A DNA stretch of 64,000 bases, taken from assembly GCA_964437115.1 (NCBI GenBank), contig CAYTFE010000002.1, forward strand, positions 65,262 to 129,261, given 5' to 3'. The notes beneath the pieces were generated by a model. The model did not search any database. It saw only the letters and a program-made list of their open reading frames with translations, and had not been told where the DNA came from. This stretch comes from an uncultured Fibrobacteraceae bacterium (GTDB lineage Bacteria > Krumholzibacteriota > Krumholzibacteriia > LZORAL124-64-63). The stretch's first letter is position 1. Every line of letters begins with the position of its first letter. Positions 40,525 through 40,838 of this stretch are shown piece after piece. Position numbers and translations under genes: made by a program.

Positions 40525-40540
40525 CACTTTTATACAAAAC

Positions 40541-40605
40541 AAAGAGCTGACAACCCAAGGGTTACGGTTGATGTCTCGCCAAACATCAATACCAGTCAGC
40601 TCTTT
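40541..40605 (-). terminator. Nested palindrome followed by a U-tract: a terminator-like or attenuator-like RNA structure in the intergenic region.
   Basis: A perfect 11 bp inverted repeat (AAAGAGCTGAC ... GTCAGCTCTTT) encloses 43 nt. That loop contains a 7 bp hairpin (TTGATGT-ctcgccaa-ACATCAA) and CAACC/GGTTG pairing. On the minus strand the element is followed by UUUGUUUUGUAU. Confidence 0.4.
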
Positions 40606-40822
40606 AGATAAATTTTTCAACGATTCTGGGGGTAAGATTTGTAAGCCTTTACCCGTGTCGACTCAAGTACAACCAGACCCCACATCTGAATAGCTCTTCA
40701 GTCAAAACTGACTTGGGAAAAGTGCTTCATCTTCGCCGGTTGATGTTTAAATAAACCTCAACCCCAAAATTCGTTATTTGCAGTCTCAGTTGTTCCCTAC
40801 AACCCACTACATATCAACTACA

Positions 40823-40838
40823 CTGCAGGTAATGTGCC
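40823..40838 (-). promoter_or_regulatory. Second sigma-54 -24/-12 promoter element P2, about 490 nt upstream of P1 in the same orientation.
   Basis: The minus strand reads TGGCAC-attac-CTGCA, with perfect GG/GC spacing and only the -14 position off consensus. No ORF of useful size lies between it and the structured element at 40541-40605. Confidence 0.55.

Follow-up and report, generated by a model that had tools for sequence, protein, structure and literature searches.

The 64,000-nt window analysed here (contig CAYTFE010000002.1 of assembly GCA_964437115.1, positions 65,262 to 129,261, from an uncultured Fibrobacteraceae bacterium) carries on its minus strand a 748-nt gap between the stop codon of a gene for a sigma-54 enhancer-binding protein and the ATG of a lipoprotein gene. 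The enhancer-binding protein combines tetratricopeptide (TPR) repeats with a Sigma54_activat AAA+ domain and an HTH_8 domain, and is called the TPR activator below. The lipoprotein gene opens an operon that also encodes a DUF4384 protein, an FG-GAP protein and a PorV-like barrel; its ATG is at 40298, the longest open reading frame (ORF), which begins at 40379, being judged over-extended. The gap contains two putative sigma-54 promoters, a distal one (P2) and a proximal one (P1) that would serve the operon. The element located between them probably is (we give this reading a probability of roughly 0.6) the gene of a discrete structured RNA of about 280 nt that has a regulatory role, depends on sigma-54 and is shielded from the operon by a terminator of its own. 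The features of the locus are listed in Table 1.

Table 1. Features of the RNA locus and its surroundings, with their positions in the window (for type-B loci, locus handles in other genomes).
Feature	Position	Strand	Remarks
P2, distal sigma-54 promoter, TGGCACattacCTGCA	40839-40824	-	GG at -24, GC at -12 (40826-40825); predicted transcription start site ~40813
Predicted non-coding RNA, ~280 nt	40531..40813	-	start placed from the -12 element, 3' end from the U tract
SL1, 5' stem-loop	40779..40811	-	apical loop UAGGGAA (40799-40793); family loop consensus UGCAGGGA
Central Y-shaped domain	40629..40770	-	long-range helix P2h closing the P3 and P4 hairpins
P3 hairpin loop, ACCGGC	40740-40735	-	
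Apical loop of the long P4 hairpin, AUGUGGGGU	40685-40677	-	family apical loop A.GUGGGGU
Three-way-junction terminator domain P5/P5a/P5b	40541..40605	-	two hairpins inside the basal stem
P5 basal stem, perfect 11-bp repeat AAAGAGCTGAC / GTCAGCTCTTT	40605-40595 / 40551-40541	-	
P5a stem, TTGATGT/ACATCAA	40589-40583 / 40574-40568	-	loop GGCGAGA (40580-40574)
P5b stem, AACCC/GGGTT	40563-40559 / 40556-40552	-	
U-rich tract, GUUUUGUAUA (GTTTTGTATA)	40540-40531	-	directly after P5; presumed 3' end
Inverted repeat, GTGTCC-N6-GGAC	40510..40527	-	just 3' of the terminator, ~170 nt upstream of P1
GTAGACA	~40485-40500	-	after the inverted repeat, between terminator and P1
P1, proximal sigma-54 promoter of the operon, TGGCACaatagATGCA	40334..40349	-	found by the sigma-54 pattern scan
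Lipoprotein gene, 297 aa	39405..40298	-	operon gene 1; signal peptide then Cys
DUF4384 protein gene	37719-39380	-	downstream of the lipoprotein gene
FG-GAP protein gene, 1081 aa	34273-37518	-	downstream of the DUF4384 gene
PorV-like barrel gene	33332-34276	-	downstream of the FG-GAP gene
AT-rich palindrome-like motif, GTTAATAAAGTTAATAG	40997-41013	-	~170 nt upstream of P2
TPR-type sigma-54 enhancer-binding protein gene, 1026 aa	41047..44127	-	immediately upstream of the RNA
Predicted activator start hairpin	44131..44159	-	stem AAUUG/CAAUU + CCC/GGG sequestering the Shine-Dalgarno GGGGA; apical loop includes UCGCCA (44146-44141)
Small predicted secreted protein gene, 101 aa	44191-44496	-	upstream of the TPR activator gene
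Response-regulator-type sigma-54 activator gene	44613-45974	-	upstream of the TPR activator gene
Type-B loci	L027, L037, L039, L041, L047, L050, L053, L055, L056, L069, L076		e.g. L053:5611-5753

P2 differs by one mismatch from the pattern TGGCAC-N5-TTGCW and can be classed as a predicted sigma-54 promoter. Taken alone, it occurs at chance frequency, the pattern giving three matches in the window versus 3.4 expected. For the same reason, a third sigma-54-like match (TGGCAGCGGAGTTGCT, 33728-33743, minus strand), which lies inside the PorV-like gene, is probably due to chance. As neither the promoter nor the branched stem at the end of the element is remarkable in a single sequence, the case rests on the comparison with other genomes.

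A blastn search with the intergenic region retrieves the two closest relatives only. The family was gathered through the homologues of the lipoprotein (alignment A1), which led to 80 genome loci whose upstream regions were read; these are labelled Krumholzibacteriia, Latescibacterota, 'Fibrobacteraceae', Eisenbacteria, Zixibacteria, Poribacteria, Cloacimonadota and others. Many of them carry a second, distal sigma-54 box 400-900 nt upstream of the lipoprotein gene. Loci of 53-68% GC share with the 37%-GC window an ordered set of motifs that starts right after this box: AGUUGCAGGGA, a hairpin with the loop AACCGGCUG, GGAGGUGGGGUCC, and finally GAAAGAGCC and GGCUCUUUCUUUC enclosing a hairpin with the loop GGCGAGA and a further hairpin. 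The stems of these motifs vary in sequence among loci yet stay complementary. In 32 of 34 loci, the distal box lies 102-135 nt upstream of the ACCGGC loop and follows the consensus T-GG-C-A-Y-G-N4-C-TGC-A, of which GG, A and TGC (hence GG-N10-TGC) are invariant. This conservation at a fixed distance supports the sigma-54-dependent start at P2 that an earlier note, made from the letters of this DNA alone, had proposed.

The RNA has homologues in 22 loci from genomes and 15 from metagenomes, spanning GC contents of 37% to 71%, and the RNA of the window matches the family profile with an nhmmer E-value of 1.2e-37. The metagenome contigs were scanned with a DNA pattern of three invariant RNA motifs only, i.e. 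independently of any protein. A covariance model of the central domain (R1, built on alignment A3) confirms 15 of the 80 loci that matched this pattern; the other 65 are chance matches. With the same model, the remaining 58 protein-anchored loci yield no further member and the 64-kb window no second copy. In all 37 loci, the RNA is flanked by the TPR activator gene and the lipoprotein gene, and it is single-copy in the window. The activator gene is upstream wherever the locus extends far enough, and the 15 metagenome loci all have the TPR activator, the RNA, the lipoprotein and the DUF4384 gene in that order. In the family, the operon that follows the RNA (lipoprotein/DUF4384/FG-GAP/PorV-like) stands behind the second sigma-54 promoter. 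Some loci carry divergent variants with low R1 scores (L100, L126 and L130) and, in one case (L044:5425-5990), a different RNA-like sequence behind the distal sigma-54 box.

The element is not a disguised small gene. Between P2 and the U tract, the minus strand has no ORF longer than 38 codons and 6-7 stop codons per frame, in agreement with the earlier note, which had seen no plausible ORF in the transcript. Among the relatives, no ORF is conserved, the longest ones shifting in position and frame, and nothing qualifies as a small ORF. Such an ORF, including one taking AUGUGGGGU as its start, was rejected on these two grounds (stops in all frames, no conserved ORF).

Folded over 289 nt, the window sequence has a minimum free energy (MFE) z-score of -3.87 relative to dinucleotide shuffles, none of 200 shuffles being as good. 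MFE folds obtained singly for 11 members (GC 37% to 68%) have one shared architecture: SL1, a long-range helix closing a Y-shaped domain (P3 and P4), a variable linker, the P5/P5a/P5b junction and a pyrimidine- or U-rich tail. SL1 is 100% identical in the three close relatives, and the GGCGAGA loop of P5a is present in 37 of 37 family members. More generally, sequence conservation sits in the apical loops rather than in the junction cores. In the Y-shaped domain, the base of P4 is extended by GUUUUC/GAAAAC in the 11 MFE folds; in the family fold, UUACCCC forms the 3' side of the long-range helix opposite GGGGUUGAGG, and GGGUAAAGG pairs with CUUUUCCC. All the minus-strand elements that the earlier note had pointed out (P2, the 11-bp repeat, the 7-bp hairpin, the U tract and GGGTAA/TTACCC) are found where it had placed them. 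The comparison changes the meaning of two of them. The GGGTAA (40654-40649) and TTACCC (40635-40630) sequences exist, but the hairpin that they were thought to form is not conserved: their halves belong to the basal extension of P4 and to the long-range helix. The nested palindrome ending in a U tract retains its stem, its U tract and its 3' boundary, but is really a three-way junction with two internal hairpins.

The strongest evidence comes from covariation, the analysis across homologous intergenic regions by which the earlier note had proposed that a highly structured RNA of about 280 nt could be refuted; it turned out clearly positive. On a plain, unfitted MAFFT alignment of 19 sequences (A2), RNAalifold finds 36 pairs, 29 of which have compensatory changes. 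The 84-pair consensus structure derived from the individual folds has 79.9% of cells paired on A2, versus 38-53% with slid partners, and 58 pairs and 200 cells with compensatory changes, values that none of 500 shuffles reaches; as this consensus came from folds of the same sequences, the percentage paired is inflated, whereas the compensatory counts are not. P5, P5a and P5b (helices 8-10) are 88%, 82% and 71% paired and include 5, 7 and 3 pairs with compensatory changes, respectively. When the central domain is re-aligned with 22 sequences, compensatory changes are found in 42 of 45 pairs and 81.7% of cells are paired, versus 38-51% in slid controls. R1 recognizes the central domain of the window (40629-40770; 72.5 bits, E = 1.6e-14) as its sole match in the 64 kb, and its scores are strongly asymmetric between strands (69-157 bits forward versus at most 20 bits reverse). 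These data indicate that the element is, with very high probability, a real, transcribed and structured RNA.

In 11 Eisenbacteria-type loci that share the gene order and the tandem promoters, a shorter RNA of ~140 nt (type B, the RNA of the window and its homologues being type A) is preceded by the distal promoter. It has a hairpin (GGAGG/CCUCC, loop GGGGGA) and a long irregular hairpin closed by GAGCCC/GGGCUC, whose apex CACCGGC contains the shared ACCGGC motif and which is followed by U7-9. RNAalifold finds 40 pairs in type B, 12 of them with compensatory changes. Rfam gives no match for it and R1 does not detect it; it is therefore treated as a related or analogous RNA.

The proximal promoter has a different distribution. 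Nearly all RNA-bearing loci have a proximal box 40-180 nt ahead of the lipoprotein start, and a P1-type box occurs alone, without the RNA, in many loci of other phyla. The ancestral state of the operon is therefore dependence on sigma-54, to which the RNA and its promoter were added as a module. In records labelled Zixibacteria, Cloacimonadota, Ignavibacteria and the like, homologous operons have one proximal sigma-54 box, and the RNA is missing. Nearly all the Poribacteria loci lack a strict sigma-54 box upstream of the gene, only L067 having one (the loci contrasted for this box are L020-L035, L046, L048, L057, L062 and L065-L067 versus L045, L051, L054, L058-L064, L068, L070 and L078-L080). 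Conserved motifs that resemble protein-binding sites lie ~150-250 nt upstream of P1 and downstream of the terminator. In the window these are the inverted repeat GTGTCC-N6-GGAC and GTAGACA, where the relatives have CGTCC-(T-rich)-GGGGA ... GGGACA; they probably are activator-binding sites (upstream activating sequences) for P1.

Whether the transcript from P2 ends before P1 decides between a discrete RNA and a leader of the operon, two options that the earlier note had left side by side. The make-up of an intrinsic terminator is present, with the 11-bp stem followed by the U-rich tract GUUUUGUAUA, and pyrimidine- or U-rich tails follow P5 in most relatives. In the three closest relatives, three-way identity is 0.67-1.0 over 40830-40531, 0.5-0.73 from there down to 40351 and 0.97-1.0 across P1 and the ribosome-binding site. 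The limits of the first block, and the fall after 40530, match a transcript that would start after P2 and end at the U tract. Several points weigh against efficient termination and thus against a discrete RNA. P5 is not a simple GC-rich terminator with a short loop, as its stem encloses a 43-nt insert of two hairpins and is A/U-rich in the window; a terminator consensus scan did not report this branched stem. The U tracts are poor in three GC-rich relatives (L006, L007 and L018), so that read-through may be substantial. In addition, the start site, the 3' end and the efficiency of termination are all deduced from sequence. In one divergent variant (L036:5206-5640), the central domain and the GGCGAGA hairpin are kept and a separate, simple GC-rich terminator hairpin stands at the end.

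According to the leader hypothesis, the P2 transcript would be the 5' part of the operon mRNA, P5 would be a conditional terminator and the fold would sense a ligand, a protein or a condition. The tie to this one operon (same strand, directly upstream, in 37 of 37 loci, single-copy) and the large, elaborate fold, as in riboswitch aptamers, speak for it, as do the U tracts, which are moderate in many members besides the three poor ones. However, a promoter intervenes before the gene: P1 and its upstream motifs are conserved beyond the terminator, and P1 suffices in phyla without the RNA. The spacing between terminator and gene ranges from ~230 nt to 1.4 kb. In L014, an ORF of 271 aa on the opposite strand (L014:4816-5631, minus strand), with zinc-finger-like CxxC motifs and resembling a transposase of insertion sequences (IS), is inserted into this spacer ahead of P1, lengthening it to ~1.4 kb while leaving the RNA and P1 intact. 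The search for an antiterminator found only 5-7-nt complements to the P5 arms, in inconsistent alignment columns (the 7-mer of the window is absent in its closest relatives, L001 and L002), hence no conserved pairing that competes with P5. Conservation in the apical loops, not in the junction cores, and the strong U7-9 terminator of type B also speak against a leader. On these grounds (P1 and its motifs kept beyond the terminator, no antiterminator, the insertion in L014, the variable spacing, the loop-centred conservation and the fact that both RNA types end, at matching positions, in a stem and a U tract), the computation leans towards the discrete RNA and a leader appears unlikely. That the RNA is discrete, terminated and acts in trans is, on balance, probable.

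If the RNA acts in trans, a partner can be looked for in its loops. In the family, UCUCGCC, the reverse complement of the P5a loop, is located 14 nt before the ATG of the activator, directly 5' of the Shine-Dalgarno sequence. It lies in a predicted hairpin in which the Shine-Dalgarno GGGGA pairs with GCCC, the base of the stem abuts AUG and the apical loop has 8 nt (UUCUCGCC). Folding 22 loci predicts this hairpin in 21 of them (the exception being L031). In a hand-placed structure, 77.7% of its cells are paired versus 38-54% in slid controls, its covariation not exceeding that of the controls; RNAalifold recovered the inner stem only. In the window, this hairpin resembles, as modelled, a translational control element in its own right. 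A survey of four invariant loops against seven genes finds complementarity of at least 6 nt between the P5a loop and the activator start, at the same site, in 25 of the 25 loci that include this start. The other combinations reach at most 13 loci, at scattered positions, and only the P5a/activator-start pair is consistent across loci. In the group of the window, the start site reads AGUCGCCA and the pairing shifts to UUUGGCGA:UCGCCAGG, with 6 Watson-Crick and 2 G-U pairs (-11.2 kcal/mol); in the window itself, the start-hairpin loop is complementary to the P5a loop only over UGGCGA:UCGCCA, the 2 G-U pairs being additional. The type-B RNA presents an analogous case, as its invariant loop CACCGGCC complements GGCCGG(U/A), a sequence that follows the Shine-Dalgarno element and precedes the AUG of the adjacent activator; this holds for the 9 type-B loci that include the activator start.

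Other candidate contacts were discarded: GCCGGU sites as targets of other loops are too frequent and scattered, a 9-nt match in L010 is not compensatory, since the site is identical in relatives with a different loop, and the opening of an ACCC/GGG hairpin in the 5' untranslated region of the operon by a GGGGUC loop fails in the window group. The contact with the activator start itself faces several objections. The pairing is short (6-8 bp), its duplex energies are just 0.3-3 standard deviations better than those of composition-matched shuffles, and complementarity of at least 7 nt occurs in ~2-5% of unrelated start windows. As loop and target are both invariant, they show no covariation with each other. 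The start-site motif could be conserved for another purpose, e.g. as a DNA operator, which is suggested by the GGGGACA-like motifs that are also found upstream of P1. Lastly, the survey yields no candidate partner for the three other invariant loops. Owing to the lack of co-variation, the weak energetics, this background and the other possible reasons for conservation, the activator start is rated as a lead only, and a specific feedback contact with it is a tentative proposal.

The same loops can be read in another way, the transcript again being discrete, as binding sites for proteins on a sponge, a scaffold or a ribonucleoprotein (RNP), the match with the start site then being coincidental. 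CsrA-family proteins bind GGA motifs in loops, and the four invariant loops (UGCAGGGA, A.GUGGGGU, GGCGAGA and ACCGGC) might bind one or more proteins, for instance of this kind: the SL1 loop CAGGGAUG resembles GGA-in-loop sites, and the type-B RNA also shows a GGGGGA loop. This explanation draws further on the fact that only one of the four loops has a candidate RNA partner, on the weak statistics of the loop/target duplex and on the precedent of CrcZ, which titrates Hfq/Crc (PMC5113210). Nevertheless, no candidate protein partner has been identified, each motif is single, unlike the multiple repeats typical of sponge RNAs, and both the complementary heptamer in the exposed loop of the activator start and the analogous type-B match would be left unexplained. 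It seems quite unlikely. The absence of any RNA function, the locus holding only DNA-level elements (activator sites, bending), a small protein or chance palindromes, is highly improbable: regions between activator genes and promoters do carry conserved binding sites and the promoter match in the window alone is at chance frequency, but dozens of pairs change on both sides with pairing kept from 37 to 71% GC, a behaviour foreign to protein-binding DNA that effectively refutes it, and the strand asymmetry of the R1 scores and the stops in all frames of the window, with no conserved ORF, point the same way.

Several neighbouring features bear on how the two promoters might be controlled. An AT-rich palindrome-like motif lies ~35-50 nt after the stop codon of the activator gene, at the same position in the relatives; it is conspicuous in the GC-rich ones (CTATTAA-N5-TTAATAG in L018) and is a candidate enhancer site for P2. 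As this motif is unlike the one that precedes P1, P1 and P2 may respond to different activators. The window has two sigma-54 activator genes directly upstream of the RNA locus, the second one being of the response-regulator type, so that two activator genes accompany two sigma-54 promoters. A response-regulator-type activator gene is also found upstream in several relatives. The peptide motif PDDAITG of the 101-aa predicted secreted protein encoded between the two activator genes is recognizable in L010 and L015. Most genes of the window (1-64000) are on the minus strand, in long co-directional runs.

Taken together, these observations allow the following model to be proposed for the discrete RNA. 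Once an enhancer-binding protein is active, most likely the TPR-type protein encoded immediately upstream, sigma-54 RNA polymerase would start at P2. The transcript would fold into its 5' stem-loop, its Y-shaped centre and its 3' three-way junction, and the basal stem of P5 together with the U-rich tail would stop transcription before P1. The RNA and the envelope operon would thus be co-induced, yet as separate transcripts. The RNA would then act through its four invariant apical loops; the GGCGAGA loop of P5a would kiss the loop of the hairpin that sequesters the Shine-Dalgarno sequence on the mRNA of the activator. This loop-loop contact would close a feedback on the synthesis of the activator, either raising or lowering its translation. 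More speculatively, the activator would be autoregulated by the very RNA that it induces through such a kissing contact, and this circuit would have been built at least twice, in different candidate phyla and with different RNA architectures and loops, by the type-A RNA (~300 nt, GGCGAGA:UCUCGCC) and by the type-B RNA (~140 nt, ACCGGCC:GGCCGGU). Alternatively or additionally, the type-A RNA might have a biochemical role (ligand sensing, RNP assembly) that gates the envelope system. We regard this wider scheme as doubtful at present.

Known RNA families do not account for the element. The Rfam search suggested in the earlier note was run with Rfam 15 and gives no gathering-level match for the RNA to any family (Qrr, GlmY/GlmZ, CrcZ, 6S, CsrB/RsmY and riboswitches included), nor for any other sequence of the whole 64-kb window (no tRNA, rRNA or riboswitch), nor in 8 related loci. 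Permissive Rfam scans of the element of the window, L003 and L053 give weak matches to small nucleolar RNAs, microRNAs, CRISPR repeats, frameshift elements and RT-6, all far below gathering; the RT-6 match (40998-41060), which has 19 bits where gathering requires 46.7, is located upstream of P2 and was judged due to chance. Full-text searches of the literature on sigma-54 RNAs in these phyla, on DUF4384 in combination with sigma-54 and on the major RNA-motif surveys, including a survey of 224 motifs, retrieved no description of the RNA. It is therefore well supported by these comparisons that the RNA represents a previously uncatalogued family. This family comes from uncultivated lineages of the Fibrobacteres-Chlorobi-Bacteroidetes (FCB) group and is unusually large and elaborately folded for a small RNA (sRNA). 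It belongs to a fixed three-part module made of an activator gene, an RNA with its own putative promoter and terminator, and a second sigma-54 promoter in front of a conserved but uncharacterised envelope operon. A seed alignment for the family is now available, and the module offers an entry point for studying how an envelope system common in candidate phyla is regulated, as well as a cheaply testable hypothesis, namely an RNA-mediated feedback on an enhancer-binding protein.

Among known systems, the large intergenic RNAs OLE, GOLLD, ROOL, HEARO and raiA are similar in that comparative genomics revealed them as conserved, covarying multi-domain RNAs with larger folds than typical sRNAs. Their models do not match the RNA of the window, and they mostly lack a dedicated type of promoter and a fixed genomic partner. 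The proposed contact with the activator mRNA recalls OxyS-fhlA, CopA/CopT and RNA I/RNA II, which involve short (~7 bp) GC-rich kissing pairs with one hairpin over the ribosome-binding region. These pairings are experimentally established, whereas the one in the window is a conserved complementarity with weak energetics and no covariation.

To our knowledge, only a small number of regulatory RNAs depend on sigma-54 (Qrr, GlmY, CrcZ/CrcY and a few more), and all come from cultivated Proteobacteria. GlmY is a sigma-54/GlrR-dependent enterobacterial sRNA encoded beside its activating two-component system. It has ~150-180 nt, acts by protein mimicry (titration of RapZ), has no tandem operon promoter and is not homologous to the RNA of the window (no match in Rfam). 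CrcZ is a sigma-54/CbrB-dependent RNA located directly downstream of cbrB (PMC5113210). Like CrcZ and CrcY of Pseudomonas, the RNA of the window is predicted to be a regulatory RNA of several hundred nucleotides with an RpoN promoter that adjoins the gene of an activator (cbrB then crcZ); CrcZ and CrcY have their own terminator and act in trans, and the same is proposed here. Unlike CrcZ, with which it shares no similarity of sequence or covariance model according to Rfam, it directly precedes a second sigma-54 promoter with a dedicated operon and its family occurs in other phyla, in uncultivated members of the FCB group. Furthermore, CrcZ has repeated A-rich Hfq-binding motifs, whereas the RNA of the window has single G-rich invariant loops on a covarying multi-domain fold.

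The circuit logic proposed here is the same as that of the Qrr RNAs of Vibrio, which are sigma-54-dependent RNAs under the control of an enhancer-binding protein, LuxO, although for the window it is deduced only from sequence. The genes for Qrr1 and LuxO are neighbours. By pairing with the luxO mRNA, the Qrr RNAs exert a negative feedback on their own activator (PMC3262071). They are ~100 nt long, Hfq-dependent and use linear seeds against many targets, whereas the RNA of the window is about three times longer, is not homologous to them (again without a match in Rfam) and would rely on a loop-loop contact with a structured translation start. If this contact is real and two RNA architectures arrived at it independently, the tuning of an activator by the RNA that it induces would be a general principle of sigma-54 circuits and not something peculiar to Vibrio.

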